DNA of 64,000 bases from an uncultured Staphylococcaceae bacterium (GTDB lineage Bacteria; Bacillota_I; Bacilli_A; ML615J-28; CAG-313), in contig CAZDPJ010000003.1 in assembly GCA_964507405.1 (NCBI GenBank), positions 1,729 through 65,728 of the forward strand, in the 5' to 3' direction. The translations under genes and the position numbers were made by a program. The notes under the pieces are model-generated. The model did not search any database. It was given only the letters and a program-made list of their open reading frames with translations, and was not told the origin of the DNA. Positions within the stretch are counted from its first letter, which is position 1. Every line of letters starts with the position of its first letter. Of this stretch, positions 38,952 to 58,119 are shown piece by piece.

Positions 38952-39871
38952 TGAGAGAAAGAAAAGTATTAAAATTTAATGATAAGACTAAGATTGTTAC
39001 TTATTTATGGATGGATCCAATCCACCATAATGAAGGCACAATTGAAATATTTCATGGAATGGCTGAAAATATTTTAAGGTATAATGAATTTGCTGAATAT
39101 TTAGCTTCTAATGGTTTTATTGTTATTGGCCATGACCATTTTGTGCATGGGGAGTCAGCTACATCTATTGATGAAATTGGGGAAACACTTGATTATGACT
39201 TTATGGATGGAATAATTAAAGCAATGAAACTTGTTCGTGATGAATATGATGAATACTTTATAAATGGTAAACGATATTTATTTGCTCATTCGATGGGTTC
39301 AATGGCTTCACAAAGATATATTCAAAAATATCCTAATGATTTTGACAAAGTTATTTTGAGTGGTACTGATATTGGTGGTGGTAAATATAGACTTGCGAAA
39401 ATGATTATTAAACCATTTACAAGACACGACAAAATTAAATATTCTAATTTTGTCTTAAATCTTACAACTACTGGATTTAACAAAAAGTTTAAAAAGGATC
39501 ATCCACAATTTGGATGGTTAAGTATAAATAAAGAAAATATTCATGAATATATTGATAATCCTTATTGTGGTAAAGACTTTCCTACTAATTACTTTTACTC
39601 CCTTTCTAAAATGATGTGTGAAAATGTAAAATCCAAAAATTTAGATTCAATTAACAAGAATATTAAGATTTTGTTGTATTGTGGAAGAGAAGACCCTGTG
39701 AGTAATTTTGGTAAATCTATTATTAAATTATCTAAGCTATATAATAAACATCAAATTGATGCATCATTTAAAATAATAGATAATGCTCGACATGAGGTTC
39801 ATAATGAATCAATTGATATAAAACATAATATTTTTGATTTGATTATTGATTTTTATAAAAAAACTAACTAA
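38951..39871 (+). CDS. Alpha/beta hydrolase (lysophospholipase-like)
   Basis: FHGMAE, DHFVHG, nucleophile AHSMGS, DPV and RHEVHNE. Confidence 0.88.
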   Translation: MRERKVLKFNDKTKIVTYLWMDPIHHNEGTIEIFHGMAENILRYNEFAEYLASNGFIVIGHDHFVHGESATSIDEIGETLDYDFMDGIIKAMKLVRDEYDEYFINGKRYLFAHSMGSMASQRYIQKYPNDFDKVILSGTDIGGGKYRLAKMIIKPFTRHDKIKYSNFVLNLTTTGFNKKFKKDHPQFGWLSINKENIHEYIDNPYCGKDFPTNYFYSLSKMMCENVKSKNLDSINKNIKILLYCGREDPVSNFGKSIIKLSKLYNKHQIDASFKIIDNARHEVHNESIDIKHNIFDLIIDFYKKTN

Positions 39872-39917
39872 AATATGATTAAATAACCTCTTTTTATCTT
39901 CAAATTTAGGCCTTAAA

Positions 39918-40666
39918 ATAGGCCTTTTTTTGCGTTTTTTAATCTAAAATGAATAAATATCGATTTGCATATTTAAATCAAAAATAAGCCTAAAATAGCT
40001 TCATCTTATATACTTTATATAATATTTAATAATATAACAATACATATAATTAATCTATATTAAAATAAAATATAAAGGCAAAACAAGCGTAAATTTTAAA
40101 AGATTAATTAACAAATGATTAATTAAACAATAAGAATTAAAAATACAAAATATCCTTTAATTTTAGTTTCAAATAAAAAATATAAAAAATTAGACGCTTT
40201 AGACTTGATAATAACCCTTCTGTGAGCGTCTGAAAAATAAAAAGATGAATAATTCTAATTAAACTTTTTAAATCAGGGCATAACATAAAATATATAATAA
40301 TTGGATATTAGAATTATTTAAAAAAATAAAATATAATAATTATATAAGCCTTCCTAAAAAAGATGAAATTTAAAAAGACGCATAAACACTAATTAAGCTA
40401 TAAAGACAAATAGTAAAAAAAGTTATATTCTTAATTAATAGTAATAGCCCTTTTTATAAAGAGCGTAATATAAAAAGTTGAATAGTTGTTAATTAAGCTA
40501 TTATAAAATAAGATCTTTATTTTAGTGATTGATAGGCCTTTCTAGAGAGGATGAAAATTAAAAAGATGAATAATTACCAATTCAAATTTTGGTTTGGTAG
40601 TTACTAATAAATAAAAATGCCTAGTAAAAGATGAAAGATAAAATACTTGATAATTAGTAATCCACA
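39918..40666 (+). repeat. Left array of degenerate ~55-bp polar repeats
   Basis: Clear copies start at 40211 (1-nt gap), 40344, 40444, 40532 and 40612; weaker copies at 39918 and ~40072. All are on + and share ATAR(C/G)CC, TGAAA, TAAAAAG, GAATAATT and TAATT(C/A)AA blocks in one register. Confidence 0.8.
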
Positions 40667-40730
40667 TTGTATTTGTGTATAAGTATATGGAAAACATACT
40701 AGTTATCCACAATCAAAAAACTTATCAACG
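40658..40730. promoter_or_regulatory. DnaA-box cluster
   Basis: TAATCCACA 40658-40666 (1 mismatch), TGTGTATAA 40674-40682 (TTATACACA on -), TTATCCACA 40703-40711 (perfect) and TTATCAACG 40722-40730 (2 mismatches), versus consensus TTATNCACA. Confidence 0.65.
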
Positions 40731-40778
40731 TTTATAGTTTTTCATTGATTTATCTAGGTTTTACTTTGCTTTTTTATT

Positions 40779-40806
40779 GGTTAACATAATATATATTATA
40801 GGAAGT
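40779..40806 (-). other. dif: dif site (XerCD chromosome dimer resolution site)
   Basis: Minus strand ACTTCCTATAATATATATTATGTTAACC (28 bp) differs at only 2-3 positions from the recalled B. subtilis (ACTTCCTAGAATATATATTATGTAAACT) and S. aureus dif sites. It lies exactly where gene orientation converges. Confidence 0.93.
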
Positions 40807-41105
40807 AAAACACAGATAAGTAAAACATCGAAAATAAGAGATTAAATGCTTCAAATCATTAAAATGGAGTATTTATTTGTCGAATTCTACTTATTTTATT
40901 AAATAAACTAACTCATTTTAATAATCATGACTATATTTAAAAAGCTAAAATATGCAGTATTTTTAAAACATAATCTTATACTGTTAATTACTCAGAATTA
41001 GATAGAAAATTCAAAATACCCCTTTAAATCGCCTTTAGATTTAAAAATAATAAAACAAATGCATTTATTGGAATTTACTTCTTATTTTAAAGGTTATCTT
41101 TACAA

Positions 41106-41495
41106 TTTAAGTTAAATAATTATTCATTTATTAAATTTCATACGTTTAGAGTAGGGTTATAAACTACTAGTTATTAATATTATTGTAAAAGCTTATATTA
41201 GTAATTATGAATCTATTAAAATTCATGCGTTTAATGAAAGCTTATAATCTATTAATTATTAATAAATAAATAATCTAAATAATTGAATAGTAGTTATATA
41301 ATTAATATTATTTCAGAAGCTAATACTGTAGTTTATATATTTAATGTTTTAAAGTGCTAATCCATGTTAATTATAAATAATTAAATTTAAATTTAGTATA
41401 TTTTTATTTTAAACAATAAAAAAACCGGGATTTCTCCCAGTTTGAATTAGTAATTATTCGACTTTTTAATTTTCATCCGCTCACAGAACGGTTAT
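41106..41495 (-). repeat. Right array of degenerate ~55-bp polar repeats (inverted relative to left array)
   Basis: Minus-strand copies at 41495-41441, 41245-41191 and 41160-41106; weaker copies at 41336-41282 and starting 41097. Confidence 0.8.
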
Positions 41496-41500
41496 AAAGC

Positions 41501-42018
41501 CTATTTTTTCTTTTTAAATGAGTAGACAGTAAAAATTAATAATATTATGATTGGTATTATAAAATAAATTGTATTAAAAATAATACATGAATACCATGGT
41601 GCTGAATTACTTTGATCAGTAATCAATATGATAATTTCAATTATTGTTTTTATTAAAAAACTGGTTGTAACGAGTATTAAAGCACCTAATAATATAAATG
41701 GATGATGTTTCATCAATTTTACTACTTATTAGTAAATATGAAAATATAATTATTCCGATAAAACCAATAATTGCGATTATAATATCTAGTAAAAGTAACT
41801 TCTTCTTATTACTCGATATTTTTCTAAGTTGTAATAATTCATCTGAACTGATATTAAATAGATTACAAAGCATAATAATGTTATCAATATCAGGTAAACT
41901 TAAATTTGTTTCCAATTTTGATATAGTTTGACGTGAAAATATTTAGTTTATTTGCTAAATCTTCTTGAGTAAAATTATTTTGTTTTCTTAATTCTTTAAT
42001 TTTTTCACCGATTGTTAT
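41501..42018 (-). pseudogene. Decayed XRE-family HTH plus membrane-domain gene (start loss, frameshifts)
   Basis: RBS AGGAG is followed 7 nt later by ATA-ACA-ATC-GGT (likely ATG>ATA). Reads TIGEKIKELRKQNNFTQEDLANKLNI / frameshift / SRQTISKLETNLSLPD...FNISSDELL plus TM, then a second frame change into a small TM peptide (SAPWY). Confidence 0.75.
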
Positions 42019-42105
42019 ATTTAAACTCCTTTCGGGAATATTATATATCTTTATTTTAGAAAAATACATCAATTTTTGTTTATAATTACTATCTTTTTAG
42101 TTGCT

Positions 42106-46336: not shown

Positions 46337-46923
46337 TTATGTTTCCTCTTATTTATAAAATAAAAAATACGATCTAAAATAATAGCCATTGTTGAAGATA
46401 TAATTGTACAAAGAATCATTAATGATATTAAAGAAATAGAATTATTTCCTTTATACATGGATCTAATACCAAGAATTGTAGTTGGAAATATGGTCAAAGA
46501 ACTAACATTCATAATGATAAAAGTAATCATACTTCTTGATGGTGATGATTTATTTGGATTTAATTTTTGTAATTCTTCAAAGGCTTTTAAGCCAAGTGGG
46601 GTTGCGGCTGAACCTAATCCTAATAAATTAGCAATTATATTTGAACAAATATATTCAAGCGCAAGATCATCTTCTTTTAATTCGGGATATAATTTTAATA
46701 AAGGTTTTTTAAAGATTTTAGTTAAATTTTTGATTAATCCGCTTTCTATTGCAATATTGAAAACACCACCCCAAAATAAAATAATTAAGCTAACATTAAA
46801 AAATATTTCAAAAGCTTCATTTGTTGAATTCATAATGATATTTCCCATATCATTTATCTTTCCTGTAAAGATACTAATAATTATACCAACGATTAATAAA
46901 GCGTTCCAAACATAATTAATCAT
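46333..46923 (-). CDS. spmA: Spore maturation protein A
   Basis: MINYVW, ANLLGLGSAATPLGLKAFEELQ and PTTILGIR. Confidence 0.95.
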   Translation of the reverse strand: MINYVWNALLIVGIIISIFTGKINDMGNIIMNSTNEAFEIFFNVSLIILFWGGVFNIAIESGLIKNLTKIFKKPLLKLYPELKEDDLALEYICSNIIANLLGLGSAATPLGLKAFEELQKLNPNKSSPSRSMITFIIMNVSSLTIFPTTILGIRSMYKGNNSISLISLMILCTIISSTMAIILDRIFYFINKRKHK

Positions 46924-46958
46924 CTTTTTTTCCTTTCAAACGCTCTGAGAACGGTTTT
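46904..46958 (-). repeat. Dispersed 55-bp repeat copy overlapping dacB end and spmA start
   Basis: AAAACCGTTC TCAGAGCGTT TGAAAGGAAA AAAGATGATT AATTA; 34 of the first 45 positions match the 41495 copy (hand count). Confidence 0.7.
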
Positions 46959-47836
46959 ATGACACTAATTTCATCAAAATATGAAGTAAAGCGTTTATTT
47001 TTAGTAAATAATGAATTATAAAAATATTGATGTACTTGCCAATCATTAGGACAATTAAATGTAACAACTACATAATATTCATCTTTATATTGATATAAAG
47101 TAACAAGTGTCCTTCCTGCTTTTTTAGTATATCCTGTTTTTCCACCAATTACATAATCATAAGTTTGAACAAGTTTATGTTTATGATGATAATACAAAGT
47201 ATGATTTTCAAGTTTTACAATTTTATTTTTAGTGCTTATTATTTCTAAAAATTTTTTATTTTTAATTCCATATGTTACAAGTTTTGCCATATCAAGTGCT
47301 GTTGTATAATTCTCATTTTCATCATCAAGTCCTGAAGGATTATTAAAGATTGAATTTGACATATTTACTTTTTTTGCTAGTTTGTTCATTAAATAAATAA
47401 AGTCTTGTTCATTATTCGTTAGACTAAGAGATAGTGCTTTTGCTGCATCATTTCCAGAGTTTAACATCAATCCATATAATAGGTCTTCTACTTTTATAAA
47501 ATCATTTACTTCTAAATATATTTTAGATCCTTCACAATTAATCATTTCCTTGGTTATTAAAACATACTCTTCGATATTAAAAAAATCAAGCACCGTAAGG
47601 CATGTCAATATTTTAGTAATTGAGGCCGGGAGTAGTGCTTGATTTATATTTTTTTGATAAAGTATTTCGAAATTAGAACAATTCATAAATATACATGCAT
47701 CAGCGTCTACAACATTTAAGTTATTTGTATTTACTATATTAATGTCATTACTAGTATAAACTTTAACTCTAATAATTGAGATTGCAAGCATGAGATATGC
47801 TAGTAATGATAAAATAAGTAATCCTTTAGTTTTCAA
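46916..47836 (-). CDS. dacB: D-alanyl-D-alanine carboxypeptidase (PBP5*-like)
   Basis: SxxK (ASITK), SGN (SGND) and KTG (GKTG); upstream of spmAB. Probable TTG start at 47836 after GGTGA. Confidence 0.9.
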   Translation of the reverse strand: MKTKGLLILSLLAYLMLAISIIRVKVYTSNDINIVNTNNLNVVDADACIFMNCSNFEILYQKNINQALLPASITKILTCLTVLDFFNIEEYVLITKEMINCEGSKIYLEVNDFIKVEDLLYGLMLNSGNDAAKALSLSLTNNEQDFIYLMNKLAKKVNMSNSIFNNPSGLDDENENYTTALDMAKLVTYGIKNKKFLEIISTKNKIVKLENHTLYYHHKHKLVQTYDYVIGGKTGYTKKAGRTLVTLYQYKDEYYVVVTFNCPNDWQVHQYFYNSLFTKNKRFTSYFDEISVIKPFSERLKGKKDD

Positions 47837-47892
47837 GCTTATCACCAATACATTATATTCATTAATGTTAAAAATATAATTAATTTTTAGAA

Positions 47893-47947
47893 TTTGAATG
47901 GATAAATTATCATAAAATTATTTTTCAAACGCTTATAGAAAAGTTTT
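47893..47947 (-). repeat. Dispersed 55-bp repeat copy
   Basis: AAAACTTTTC TATAAGCGTT TGAAAAATAA TTTTATGATA ATTTATCCAT TCAAA, starting 4 nt after the MATE stop codon. Confidence 0.65.
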
Positions 47948-47951
47948 ATTC

Positions 47952-50352: not shown

Positions 50353-52172
50353 TACATCACCCTTTTAAACATTTTTTCAAGTTCATATTTAGAAAATTGA
50401 ATAATGGTAGGTCTTCCATGAGGACAAGTGTAAGGCATTTGACAAGTATCAAGTTTTTCCATTAATGATTTTACTTCTTCTATAGTTATTTCCATATTAG
50501 CCTTAATTGATTTTTTACAACTTAATTTTTTAGCAAGACTATCTTGCATGATTTGTTTATTAACCATTTTATTATTTAATAAATACTCAATAATATCTCT
50601 TATATATGATTCTTCTTGACCTTTAGGTATCCAGAAAGGGATGCTTCTAACAAGAATTACATTATTACCAAATTGTTCAACTTTAATATGCATTCTTTCT
50701 AATTCGTTTGCTTTTTCCATAATTAGATTTATTTGACTAATATTATATTCTAGTTTTAATGGAATTAGTAACTCGTATGCTAAATTATTGCCTTCTTGGT
50801 ATAATTTCTTTTTAATGGTTTCATACATGTATCTTTCCATCCCCGCATGTTGATCTATTAAATATAATGTATTATTATTTTCCATTATTAAATATGTTTT
50901 ATTAAATTGACCAATATAATTAAGACTTTTAAAGAAATCATTTTCTTTTTCTTTTAGTAGGGGCTCTTCATATAATTCTTCTTCATTTAGATTATCATTA
51001 TAAATTTCATTTTTTTCTTCTTTTTTTACCTCTTTATTATACGGTTCAAACATGTCCCAGAGATTATCAAGATTATTTTCTACCTTATTTTTAGTTTCAT
51101 CTTCTGTAAAACGGGTTACAGGATCAAATAGAGTGGTTTTTGGTTCAATAACTTCATCAGCAGTTTGACTTGTTATTAACTCTTTTTTATTAAGAGATGA
51201 ATAAATAGTTTTCGAAATTAGTTGTTTTAATCGATATTCATCGGTAAATTTAATCTCAAGTTTAGAGGGATGAATATTAACATCTAATAAACCATAATCA
51301 CAAGTTATTTTTAGAATCGTTATCGGATACTTACCAATTGGAAGGATTGTTTGATAAGCATCACATACACTATATACTAGTGATTGGTTTTTAATAATTC
51401 TTCCATTGGCAATTAAAATGATGCCATTTTTATTTGAACGATTAATTGCATTACTTGTAGTATATCCTTCAATATGATATAGATCATTATCACCATTAAA
51501 TTCGATAATATTTTTTGCAACTTCTTTTCCAAATGTTTCACTTATGATTAATTCAATATTATCTTTGCCATCGGTTTGTAATAAAGTTTTATTATTATTA
51601 CTTAATGAAAAAGCAATATTGGGATAGGCAATGGCAAATTTATTAACAATTGATGTAATATTAGCAAGTTCAGTTGAATCAGAACTTAGATGCTTGAAGC
51701 GAGCTGGGGTATTATAGAATAAATCTTCAACCTCAATCTTAGTTCCAGATGTCATCGCACATGGAGTTTCATTTATAATTTTTCCATTTTTATAAGTATA
51801 ACTATAACCATTTAAATCAGTAGTTCCTGAAGATATTTTAAATAGAGAAACACTAGCAATTGAAGGCAGTGCTTCACCTCTAAAACCAAGGGATGAAATA
51901 TTAAATAAATCAGTTGATGTTTTAATTTTACTAGTTGCATTTCTTTTTAAGGCAATTGGTATTTCTTCTTTATCAATGCCATAACCATTATCAGTTATAG
52001 TTATTTTTTTTAAGCCTGAATCTATTAGTTCTATTTTTATTGATGAGGCTTGTGCATCGATACTATTTTCAACTAATTCTTTGACGACACTTGCGGGGCG
52101 TTCAACTACTTCTCCAGCCGCGATTAAATTTTTTAGTTCTTCAGATAATTCAATAATATGATTTTTAATCAT
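50352..52172 (-). CDS. mutL: DNA mismatch repair endonuclease MutL
   Basis: IAAGEVVERPASVVKELVENSID, GFRGEAL, DQHAGMER and CPHGRP. Confidence 0.97.
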   Translation of the reverse strand: MIKNHIIELSEELKNLIAAGEVVERPASVVKELVENSIDAQASSIKIELIDSGLKKITITDNGYGIDKEEIPIALKRNATSKIKTSTDLFNISSLGFRGEALPSIASVSLFKISSGTTDLNGYSYTYKNGKIINETPCAMTSGTKIEVEDLFYNTPARFKHLSSDSTELANITSIVNKFAIAYPNIAFSLSNNNKTLLQTDGKDNIELIISETFGKEVAKNIIEFNGDNDLYHIEGYTTSNAINRSNKNGIILIANGRIIKNQSLVYSVCDAYQTILPIGKYPITILKITCDYGLLDVNIHPSKLEIKFTDEYRLKQLISKTIYSSLNKKELITSQTADEVIEPKTTLFDPVTRFTEDETKNKVENNLDNLWDMFEPYNKEVKKEEKNEIYNDNLNEEELYEEPLLKEKENDFFKSLNYIGQFNKTYLIMENNNTLYLIDQHAGMERYMYETIKKKLYQEGNNLAYELLIPLKLEYNISQINLIMEKANELERMHIKVEQFGNNVILVRSIPFWIPKGQEESYIRDIIEYLLNNKMVNKQIMQDSLAKKLSCKKSIKANMEITIEEVKSLMEKLDTCQMPYTCPHGRPTIIQFSKYELEKMFKRVM

Positions 52173-54812: not shown

Positions 54813-54867
54813 TTTGAGATGAAAAATTATTCATTTTTTCAAACTCAAACGCTCTCAGAACGGTTTT
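54813..54867 (-). repeat. Dispersed 55-bp repeat copy forming a terminator-like hairpin
   Basis: AAAACCGTTC TGAGAGCGTT TGAGTTTGAA AAAATGAATA ATTTTTCATC TCAAA; overlaps the ECF S-component stop codon. Confidence 0.7.
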
Positions 54868-55564
54868 ATTTTTTAATGTTAGATAAAGTATAACTTGCGG
54901 GACTACCGATTAATCCACCAACAATAGCTTCAAAAATGCCATTGGTACCAACAATACCTAAAATTACAGTCAATAATACTTGATAATCCATCCCCGCAAT
55001 CAAGGCATATTGTTTACCCCATAAAAAGTAAGTTCCAAGTAATACTAAAAAAGTATTAGTTAAACTACCTAGTATTCCACCGATAAAATATATAAAAGCA
55101 TCTTTTCTTTTTAAACTATTCTTTGTAATTTCCGTAAAATATGTACCAAATAAAATAATTGTTAATTTATTTTCTTTAATTTTCTTTAAGGAATTAGATA
55201 CTAATCCAGAAACAACACCTGTTAAAATTCTTGGAACAAAACAAATAACTAAGGGCCAGTAACTACGATATTCATTTGTATATGCATTCCAAGGAGTAAA
55301 TAAGATTGCTGAAGCATTGGCAGAATCAATAAATGTCCACCAAATAAAACTAAATAAGCCAGCAAATAACCCAAGAATTGCGCCTGACTTAATGCCATAA
55401 GTCATACCAGCAATAATAACAGGAACCATTGCTAATGTTGCAACGACCGGACCAATTTGAATTGAACCAAGGAAAGGCACAAAACATACAATTGCTTCTA
55501 AAGCAATTAACATAGCTAGTCTTGTTAAGTTTTTGATTTGCATTGATCTTGTATTTTTTCTCAT
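54866..55564 (-). CDS. ECF transporter S component (PanT-like)
   Basis: PFLGSIQIGPVVATLAMVPVII, PRILTG, GSLTNTFLVL and GTNGIFEA. Confidence 0.82.
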   Translation of the reverse strand: MRKNTRSMQIKNLTRLAMLIALEAIVCFVPFLGSIQIGPVVATLAMVPVIIAGMTYGIKSGAILGLFAGLFSFIWWTFIDSANASAILFTPWNAYTNEYRSYWPLVICFVPRILTGVVSGLVSNSLKKIKENKLTIILFGTYFTEITKNSLKRKDAFIYFIGGILGSLTNTFLVLLGTYFLWGKQYALIAGMDYQVLLTVILGIVGTNGIFEAIVGGLIGSPASYTLSNIKK

Positions 55565-57934: not shown

Positions 57935-58015
57935 GCATATATTATACTCTATTTTGCTATTTTTTGCAAGAAATATAATAATTTTTTCAGTGCATTAATT
58001 TTAAAAGAAAAATTA

Positions 58016-58070
58016 ATAACCGTTCTAGAATCGTTTGAAATAAAAAAGTTTAGTAATTATTAATTTCAAA
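58016..58070 (+). repeat. Dispersed 55-bp repeat copy (opposite polarity to neighbours)
   Basis: ATAACCGTTC TAGAATCGTT TGAAATAAAA AAGTTTAGTA ATTATTAATT TCAAA. Confidence 0.7.
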
Positions 58071-58119
58071 TTTTAAAATTTATCAAAAAGAGCCCTCTTT
58101 ATAGAGGACTCAGGATTAT

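Follow-up and report, generated by a model that had tools for sequence, protein, structure and literature searches.

Repetitive extragenic palindromic (REP) elements, bacterial interspersed mosaic elements (BIMEs) and REP doublets forming hairpins (REPINs) are RAYT-associated repeats of Proteobacteria. Gyrase and IHF are among the host proteins that bind REP elements. Here we analyse a 64,000-nt stretch of DNA from an uncultured Staphylococcaceae bacterium (the whole stretch is called the window below), in which a repeat of similar build surrounds dif, the site where XerCD resolves chromosome dimers. Like REP elements, BIMEs and REPINs, the repeat is a short imperfect palindrome, a doublet of inverted boxes of about 25 bp. 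As they do, it sits at gene 3' ends and operon junctions in either orientation, often looks like a terminator and is sometimes clustered. It differs from them in number and place. Instead of hundreds of copies across the genome there are about 10-14 per genome within tens of kilobases of dif, tandem arrays lie directly beside dif, and the window's genus has no RAYT/Y1 transposase. The element is an extragenic palindromic, terminator-forming repeat that is unusual in its confinement to the neighbourhood of dif.

Other comparisons come from the chromosome terminus. To our knowledge, most bacteria have neither Tus nor RTP, and little is known about how the dif region is organised in Firmicutes beyond Bacillus subtilis. 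The repeat resembles Tus-Ter and RTP-Ter in providing several asymmetric sites near the terminus, which in the window's genus lie in mirror image around dif. The ter sites of B. subtilis are likewise built of imperfect inverted repeats (PMC13220808). Unlike Tus-Ter and RTP-Ter, the repeat has units of 55-72 bp that lie at stop codons and form predicted terminators.

A second group of terminus-confined elements that flank dif comprises matS/MatP, XDS/XerD and the TrmBL2-bound flanks of Thermococcus kodakarensis. In T. kodakarensis, dif lies in a 1.9-kb intergenic region whose protein-bound flanks stall SMC (PMC11840125), and in our locus, as there, convergent genes enclose a large dif gap that is non-coding (PMC11840125). 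In B. subtilis, XerD at XDS unloads SMC, according to work cited in PMC11894783. The repeat differs from this group in having no XerD half-site, no significant A-tract phasing and a predicted terminator role at gene ends. The accessory DNA of cer and psi is about 180 bp long, lies on the XerC side only and binds PepA, ArgR or ArcA. Our locus resembles cer and psi in having conserved non-core DNA within a few hundred base pairs of the Xer core, together with a predicted host-protein site (a DnaA box). Unlike theirs, its repeats flank dif on either side, at 200-400 bp and also at distances of up to 17-50 kb.

Finally, Lactobacillus delbrueckii ssp. bulgaricus carries terminus-centred inverted repeats of 38-76 kb that include dif (PMC5345009). 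The likeness lies in the process: inverted duplication at the terminus is able to place inverted copies on both sides of dif (PMC5345009). Here, in contrast, the units are 55-72 bp long and dif is single.

We propose, with a probability of roughly 0.5, that a lineage-specific palindromic 3'-end or terminator element caps the convergent genes at dif and has been tandemly amplified there.

Anatomy of the repeat

An imperfect palindromic element of about 72 bp underlies the repeat, and the 55-bp unit is its left half, the better conserved of the two. The element is made up of a 25-bp box (TAWAACCnTTCTnAGAGCGTTTGAAA), an A-run, an inner hairpin that is short and variable, and a degenerate reverse complement of the box. 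The family consensus of 116 copies reads TAnAACCnTTCTnAGAGCGtTTGAAA, A-run (AAAAAG), aTGaAtAATTAtTcAt, cTCAAA. The reverse-complemented box is found at a fixed +48 downstream of the first box and not upstream of it (mean score 0.5 vs -8.5, Wilcoxon p 8e-11). Well-kept full palindromes of about 72-75 bp occur in two relatives (G015 and G024), and the box itself is partly dyad-symmetric (CCnTTCTnAGAnCGG).

A first-pass annotation of the window had treated the unit as a one-directional site. Since the unit forms half of a palindrome, the orientation assigned to it by a profile largely shows which arm survived better. The annotation also held that unit length and register are kept. This is true inside the units; between them the spacing varies from 85 to 250 bp.

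The same annotation saw A/T tracts recurring about every 10 bp and considered an intrinsically bent scaffold. However, 114 of 200 dinucleotide shuffles reach the observed power at 10-11 bp. A-tract phasing and curvature of the units are not significant, and phasing thus lends a bent scaffold no support. Folding energies are alike for the sense and antisense strands of the copies and covariation is weak; these results give no evidence of a structured RNA specific to one strand. An Rfam 15 scan of 39-42.5 kb at E<=10 returned chance-level matches only, none of them over a unit.

Two further candidates were rejected. A promoter on the reverse strand (TTGAAT-N17-TTTAAT) is present in a few window copies only and missing from the family consensus. 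A small peptide (MKIKK.. or MNNY..) is not conserved.

Position at gene ends

Sense copies tend to begin where a gene ends: 19 of 28 start between -8 and +6 nt from the upstream stop codon, and the element's own TAA serves as the stop. Many of these copies form a predicted intrinsic terminator or precede one. The copy between an ECF-S gene and mutS (54813-54869) has a predicted hairpin, AGAGCGTTTGAG...CTCAAACGCT, followed by T7, with a folding energy (dG) of -22 kcal/mol. Its orthologues fold at -16 to -18 kcal/mol and then show T7-8. Antisense copies, such as those of genome G010, lie 0-50 nt past the upstream stop. On the gene-sense strand the G010 copies present an 8-12-bp hairpin, a T-run, then GAGAAGGG or GGAGG, and the next start codon. 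Hence, in computed folds, the dispersed copies combine what defines an intrinsic terminator: a stable hairpin, a T-run and a place past the stop.

At the junction of dacB and spmA, the window has a copy in sense orientation and G010 one in antisense orientation. The window copy (46909-46960) forms the C-terminus of DacB in frame (..IKPFSERLKGKKDD*) and also gives the start of spmA; its 5' box pairs with spmA codons (dG -10.7). The element is thus found inside coding sequence, as ..KPFSERLK.. in the DacB C-terminus in the window and its genus, and as ..AFLERLKK* in the C-terminus of the PHP protein in G009. A unit-like stretch, AACCCGTTTTACAGAAGATGAAACTAAAAA, is also in frame in the MutL linker (window 51088-51119, minus strand); G001, G002, G003 and G006 have stronger versions at the orthologous position, with E-values down to 2e-8. 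At locus L045 (12040-12125) the hydrolase gene that precedes dif elsewhere is missing and the element's TAA ends deoB directly. This is a precise gene loss in which the gene-end element was retained.

The simplest layout is seen in a compact clade (L040-L047), where the dif gap measures 610-820 bp and contains one element per convergent flanking gene end and no arrays. Only some genera have arrays of at least three copies, for the most part on the side of the XerD arm. Each species has its own period: 85-133 bp in the window, 145 bp in G004, 113 bp in G009 and about 165 bp in G018. The G004 array has four near-identical periods. Copy number and period vary between species and copies can be near-identical, which points to recent, recurrent tandem amplification.

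In our reading, the repeat is a family of gene-end elements in uncultured gut Bacilli. Copies in sense orientation lend their TAA to the upstream gene as its stop, and their two arms form a predicted intrinsic terminator. Where a copy is antisense, the inner hairpin and the T-run are the predicted terminator, and the reverse-complemented box offers a Shine-Dalgarno-like GAGAAGGG or GGAGG to the next gene. Each of the two genes that flank the dif gap is capped by one element, the alpha/beta-hydrolase gene towards the XerD arm and the PHP gene towards the XerC arm. In the window's genus both caps would be in sense orientation, and tandem amplification would have raised them to 4-5 copies left of dif and three right of it, giving arrays that point at dif. 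The mirror image would then be a product of convergent transcription at the terminus and of local amplification, not of polar fork arrest. The main function is probably transcription termination or insulation around dif. Copies probably spread locally, by duplication or recombination near the terminus.

Repeats around dif in the window

The window contains a gene-free gap of 1.77 kb (39871-41637) between the alpha/beta-hydrolase gene on the plus strand and a string of genes on the minus strand. GC skew switches at 40-42 kb, from +0.18 to -0.10, and the gene strands converge at the same point. The first-pass annotation had placed dif at this strand switch, and a perfect Firmicute-type (Bacillus-type) match, ACTTCCTATAATATATATTATGTTAACC, does lie there on the minus strand.

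Members of the degenerate family of about 55 bp lie on both sides of dif. A repeat search and nhmmer recovered four clear plus copies on the left, already marked at 40211, 40344, 40444 and 40532, and three minus copies on the right, marked with their ends at 41495, 41245 and 41160; E-values of the seven range from 3e-14 to 2e-8. A fifth left copy that had been marked at 40612 is marginal: it is missed by a model built without it and matched by a model (called R1, like one of the unit copies) that was trained on it. The copies at 40211 and 41495 had been described as 46/55 identical, and we count 46 identical positions over 56 alignment columns. Fainter minus copies extend up to 17 kb to the right of dif (46909-46960, 47892-47949 and 54813-54869), together with one plus copy (58014-58071). 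The features are as follows (E, nhmmer E-value; PWM, position weight matrix).

40211..40265, plus: unit copy L1, left array; box ATAACCCTTCTGTGAGCGTCTGAAA; E 2e-12; box PWM 33.4 bits
40344..40398, plus: unit copy L2, left array, degenerate; E 9e-11; 23.4 bits
40444..40498, plus: unit copy L3, left array, degenerate; E 9e-10
40532..40586, plus: unit copy L4, the left-array member closest to dif; E 4e-13; 25.6 bits
40612..40667, plus: marginal fifth left copy, overlapping the start of the DnaA-box cluster; matched only by model R1, trained on it
40658..40730, no strand assigned: cluster of DnaA-box-like sequences (of the kind TTATCCACA), with the left array on one side and the XerD arm of dif on the other
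40779..40806, minus: dif, XerCD chromosome-dimer resolution site, XerD arm towards the left array; identical or nearly so in every related locus
41106..41160, minus: unit copy R3, right array; E 2e-8; 26.7 bits
41192..41247, minus: unit copy R2, right array, degenerate; E 1.5e-8
41422..41443, minus: intrinsic terminator CTGGGAGAAATCCCGG + T7, occupying the expected place of the right arm of the R1 palindrome
41439..41497, minus: unit copy R1, best copy; E 3e-14; 34.9 bits
46909..46960, minus: dispersed copy at the dacB/spmA junction; orthologues in G001, G002, G003, G005 and G006
47892..47949, minus: dispersed copy between the stop of a MATE gene (47952) and dacB; 28 bits; box PWM 26.1 bits
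54813..54869, minus: dispersed copy that supplies the ECF-S gene with its stop codon (TAA), upstream of mutS; orthologous in all genomes of the window's genus (g1)
58014..58071, plus: dispersed copy, antisense to the flanking minus genes, 'wrong' polarity for the right replichore; orthologues in G003 and G005

The 58014-58071 copy lies directly past the terminator of an 873-aa gene. Copy R1 begins 5 nt past the stop (41501) of a decayed gene for a helix-turn-helix (HTH) membrane protein, and the separate GC-rich terminator then follows. This gene (41501-42072, minus strand) is of the XRE-type HTH_19 kind with a transmembrane tail and is broken into overlapping frames (41890-42072, 41637-41915 and 41501-41716). 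It is a decaying pseudogene that was inserted between the PHP gene and dif; relatives lack it at this position.

Distribution in the genome and in relatives

We scanned the whole 1.51-Mb assembly with the PWM of the 25-bp box. All matches of at least 23 bits are on the window's contig: they begin at the arrays and reach 17 kb to the right of dif, with a single further match at 48 kb. In the rest of the assembly the top score is 16 bits. The match about 48 kb right of dif (contig C3:90409, plus strand, 26.6 bits) lies outside the window and has the 'wrong' orientation for the right replichore.

A sequence-only covariance model from the window copies was run on 40 related genomes (E<=0.01). It matches in all 24 other genomes of the family. 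Matches are strong and multiple in about 19 of them; G007, G008, G012, G014, G021 and G023 have weak ones. They are nearly always grouped on one contig, and dif is present in every repeat cluster that we retrieved from relatives. The sister family yields four weak matches, none of them convincing. Dif gaps outside the family show marginal homology at most (E>=0.04), and a comparison with plasmids and phages, for an origin from an iteron or from an integrative mobile element exploiting Xer (IMEX), gave no match. The repeat family is real, lineage-specific and terminus-restricted. Its hosts are metagenome-assembled genomes (MAGs) of uncultured gut Bacilli ('Staphylococcus sp. CAG:324', 'uncultured Mollicutes UMGS75', 'Bacilli bacterium HGM10607' and others).

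Three findings would have spoken against the first-pass annotation by its own account: copies spread uniformly without strand bias relative to the replichores, no arrays at dif in relatives, and profile scores at chance level. None of them came about. Copies lie strictly near the terminus, relatives carry copies at dif, and scores are far above chance. Mirror polarity is nevertheless kept only in the window's genus, and outside this genus the polar mechanism fails its key prediction.

Synteny around dif is strictly kept: hemW-xerD-deoB-hydrolase -> dif <- PHP-FicwHTH-PAP2-rluB-spmB-spmA-dacB-..-miaA-mutL-mutS. The order xerD-deoB ... dif ... Fic-wHTH, with xerD 3-5 kb from dif, extends beyond the family into repeat-free MAGs of the Acholeplasmatales and Anaeroplasmataceae (L055, L061, L076, L083, L084, L086 and L088).

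Orientation relative to dif

We compared polarity in a common xerD-oriented frame. The copy nearest to dif on the hydrolase or XerD-arm side is plus in 15 of 17 genomes; its counterpart on the PHP side is minus in seven genomes (the window's genus and one other) and plus in about ten. Over all copies at E<=1e-4, the mirror-image rule holds by 37:4 in the window's genus and by 26:18 in other genera. In the window's genus the mirror polarity coincides with gene sense (18:4).

G010 is the most instructive case. Six or seven plus copies lie among minus genes up to 21 kb right of dif, with two minus copies beyond. GC skew and gene strand still flip at dif, about 21-27 kb away from the point where copy orientation switches. 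If the copies were polar barriers, then the right fork would stop about 21 kb before dif and the skew would switch there. The skew switches at dif.

Polarity is not conserved across the family. The mirror layout is a trait of one genus, not a fork-trap signature. A mirror image around dif can arise from convergent gene ends plus tandem amplification and is, alone, no evidence for a fork trap.

The annotation had also considered translocase guides of the KOPS or SRS type (FtsK-orienting polar sequences and SpoIIIE recognition sequences). Such guides are short motifs that are frequent genome-wide and skewed to the leading strand, whereas the unit family is absent outside the terminus. Across the whole genome of the window (G000), the most frequent strongly skewed oligomers are GAAGAAG (637 leading vs 52 lagging), which is absent from the unit, and AGAAGAAG (246 vs 7). 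Both are candidates for the organism's FtsK/SpoIIIE-orienting motif; GAAGAAG is the heptamer reported for Lactococcus. The 5' part of the unit, reverse-complemented, resembles the B. subtilis SRS GAGAAGGG, which is rare and unskewed here (4:1), and was rejected as a guide.

Alternative explanations

Several observations weigh against a terminator as the whole explanation. Strong copies are confined to about -1 to +50 kb of dif, which a generic terminator role would not predict. The 25-bp box is about 65-80% identical across genera (XerD is 58-70% identical), where other intergenic DNA is unalignable. A terminator needs no set sequence, yet the box is conserved, which suggests that something reads it sequence-specifically. 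The box hairpin covaries only weakly, with C-C as the commonest 9/20 pair; RNAalifold found no consensus structure in the 116 aligned copies. The array units are weak AT-rich hairpins with poor T-runs and would be poor terminators alone. Lastly, a different repeat has the same inverted layout at one locus outside the family (L086), which hints at a dif-linked process or function. The terminator role leaves box conservation and confinement to dif unexplained.

The repeat at L086 (13370-15460, an Acholeplasmatales MAG) is an unrelated sequence of about 45 bp, TTTCGAAAAACATCTAGTTATTAATACTAGAT, a palindrome with a 7-bp stem (ATCTAGT..ACTAGAT). Four plus copies lie left of dif and two or three inverted copies to its right; the non-coding gap that holds them spans 2.3 kb and has TTATCCACA boxes as well.

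A serious rival, though a less likely one, is that the repeat is a non-polar marker of the terminus. The 25-bp box, paired in each element, would then be a putative binding site that marks a domain of 30-50 kb around dif. Possible roles are those of an SMC roadblock or unloader, an anchor for the divisome or Topo IV, or the site of a Xer accessory factor, terminator activity being secondary or exapted. The analogues would be matS/MatP, XDS/XerD, the TrmBL2 sites flanking dif in Thermococcus, and the accessory sequences of cer and psi. Such a role is consistent with the conservation of the box over about 13 genera in which neutral DNA is scrambled. It is also consistent with copies that keep strictly to the neighbourhood of dif and are densest immediately on either side of it, with the partial dyad symmetry of each box, and with the independent repeat family of the same layout at L086. 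Published analogues are the SMC-stalling dif flanks of T. kodakarensis (PMC11840125) and the unloading of SMC by XerD at XDS (as cited in PMC11894783).

A pure binding site, however, is not expected to abut stop codons exactly, or to be used as stop, ribosome-binding site, terminator and coding sequence. We found no candidate binding protein. The Fic-wHTH neighbour was rejected as cognate binder because its homologue adjoins dif also in lineages without the repeat. Copies are weak or very degenerate in G008, G012, G021, G023, L040 and L041 and hence seem dispensable or fast-evolving. The units also lack a dif-like half-site, so a reading as XerD half-site or XDS was dropped: no unit matches the XerD arm with up to 1-2 mismatches, and such matches are not enriched near dif (the XDS motif was taken from secondary descriptions).

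In a more elaborate form, which we regard as unlikely, the box would be the site of a terminus-specific DNA-binding factor. The 30-50 kb would form a 'dif domain', a zone of SMC stalling or unloading or an accessory zone for Xer and FtsK, and the conserved DnaA box and the flank of the XerD arm would complete a built-in nucleoprotein module around dif. Other lineages (e.g. that of L086) would have evolved analogous modules from unrelated repeats. If the box does bind a protein, then it would be a terminus marker like matS or XDS in abundant uncultured gut bacteria. A family-conserved, dif-confined sequence is a handle on its reader, which could be RNA polymerase acting at terminators, an accessory factor for SMC or Xer, or something novel.

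More doubtful is an origin as a relic of a non-autonomous mobile element, of the REPIN type or a miniature inverted-repeat transposable element (MITE). Such an element, with terminal inverted repeats of about 25 bp, would have inserted at gene ends and terminators near the terminus, for example coupled to replication at converging or stalled forks. Its copies would have been domesticated as terminators, and the arrays would be tandem amplifications. The terminal inverted repeats typical of MITEs, the doublet of inverted boxes typical of REPs and REPINs, and full palindromic copies are all present. The occupation of one junction in opposite orientations in different genera also suggests mobility, as do the unit-like segments in frame in the C-termini of DacB and PHP and in the MutL linker, and the correlation of orientation runs with replication direction in the window's genus.

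On the other side, the genome-wide dispersal of REPs and REPINs is missing and a Y1/RAYT transposase (PF01797) is found in 2 of 25 family genomes, none of them in the window's genus. Neither a parent insertion sequence nor further copies were found elsewhere in the genome, and similarity to plasmids or phages was not found either. Far from being recent or polymorphic, the dispersed copies are old and degenerate, and within the genus they are orthologous. In DNA of 73% A+T the TA flanks that can be seen carry no information, and no target-site duplications were demonstrated. We know of no described precedent, at this resolution, for insertion at the terminus only.

A polar replication-fork trap, in which the unit and a putative terminator protein would arrest forks in one orientation as in Tus-Ter or RTP-Ter, fits the mirror image in the window's genus, the redundant sites that are densest at the centre and the terminus restriction, but is highly improbable: opposed groups that switch at the termination point are not found in all members (the symmetry is lost in other genera), the opposed copies of G010 conflict with its skew switch, the unit makes up one half of a palindrome, copies adjoin stop codons and are predicted terminators in either orientation, and the lack of tus and rtp that the annotation saw in the window extends to all 41 genomes (Tus, Pfam PF05472, E. 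coli control positive; RTP, PF02334, none over the cut-off, B. subtilis control positive).

Other features beside dif

The dif gap holds further conserved sequences. On the left, a DnaA box of the TTATCCACA or TTATCAACA type (window 40700-40778) lies about 45 bp from the XerD arm of dif, and its position is kept across the genera of the family (L040-L054). A flank, GGCTTTTTACTTATnTTTTTTA, abuts the XerD arm and is conserved across the same loci. The DnaA box and this flank may form a Xer accessory region.

On the right of dif (window about 40868-40935, plus strand), a promoter-like sequence, TTGaCa/TTGTCG-N17-TAAAAT/TAAATA, is conserved and aligned in L040-L054. A conserved block, AAACTAACTCATTTT-N9-ATGAnTATATTTA, follows; it has no Rfam match. 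In most relatives a terminator with GGCC...GGCC and a T-run lies about 100-150 nt downstream of this block. The promoter-like site and the block may be a small RNA gene.

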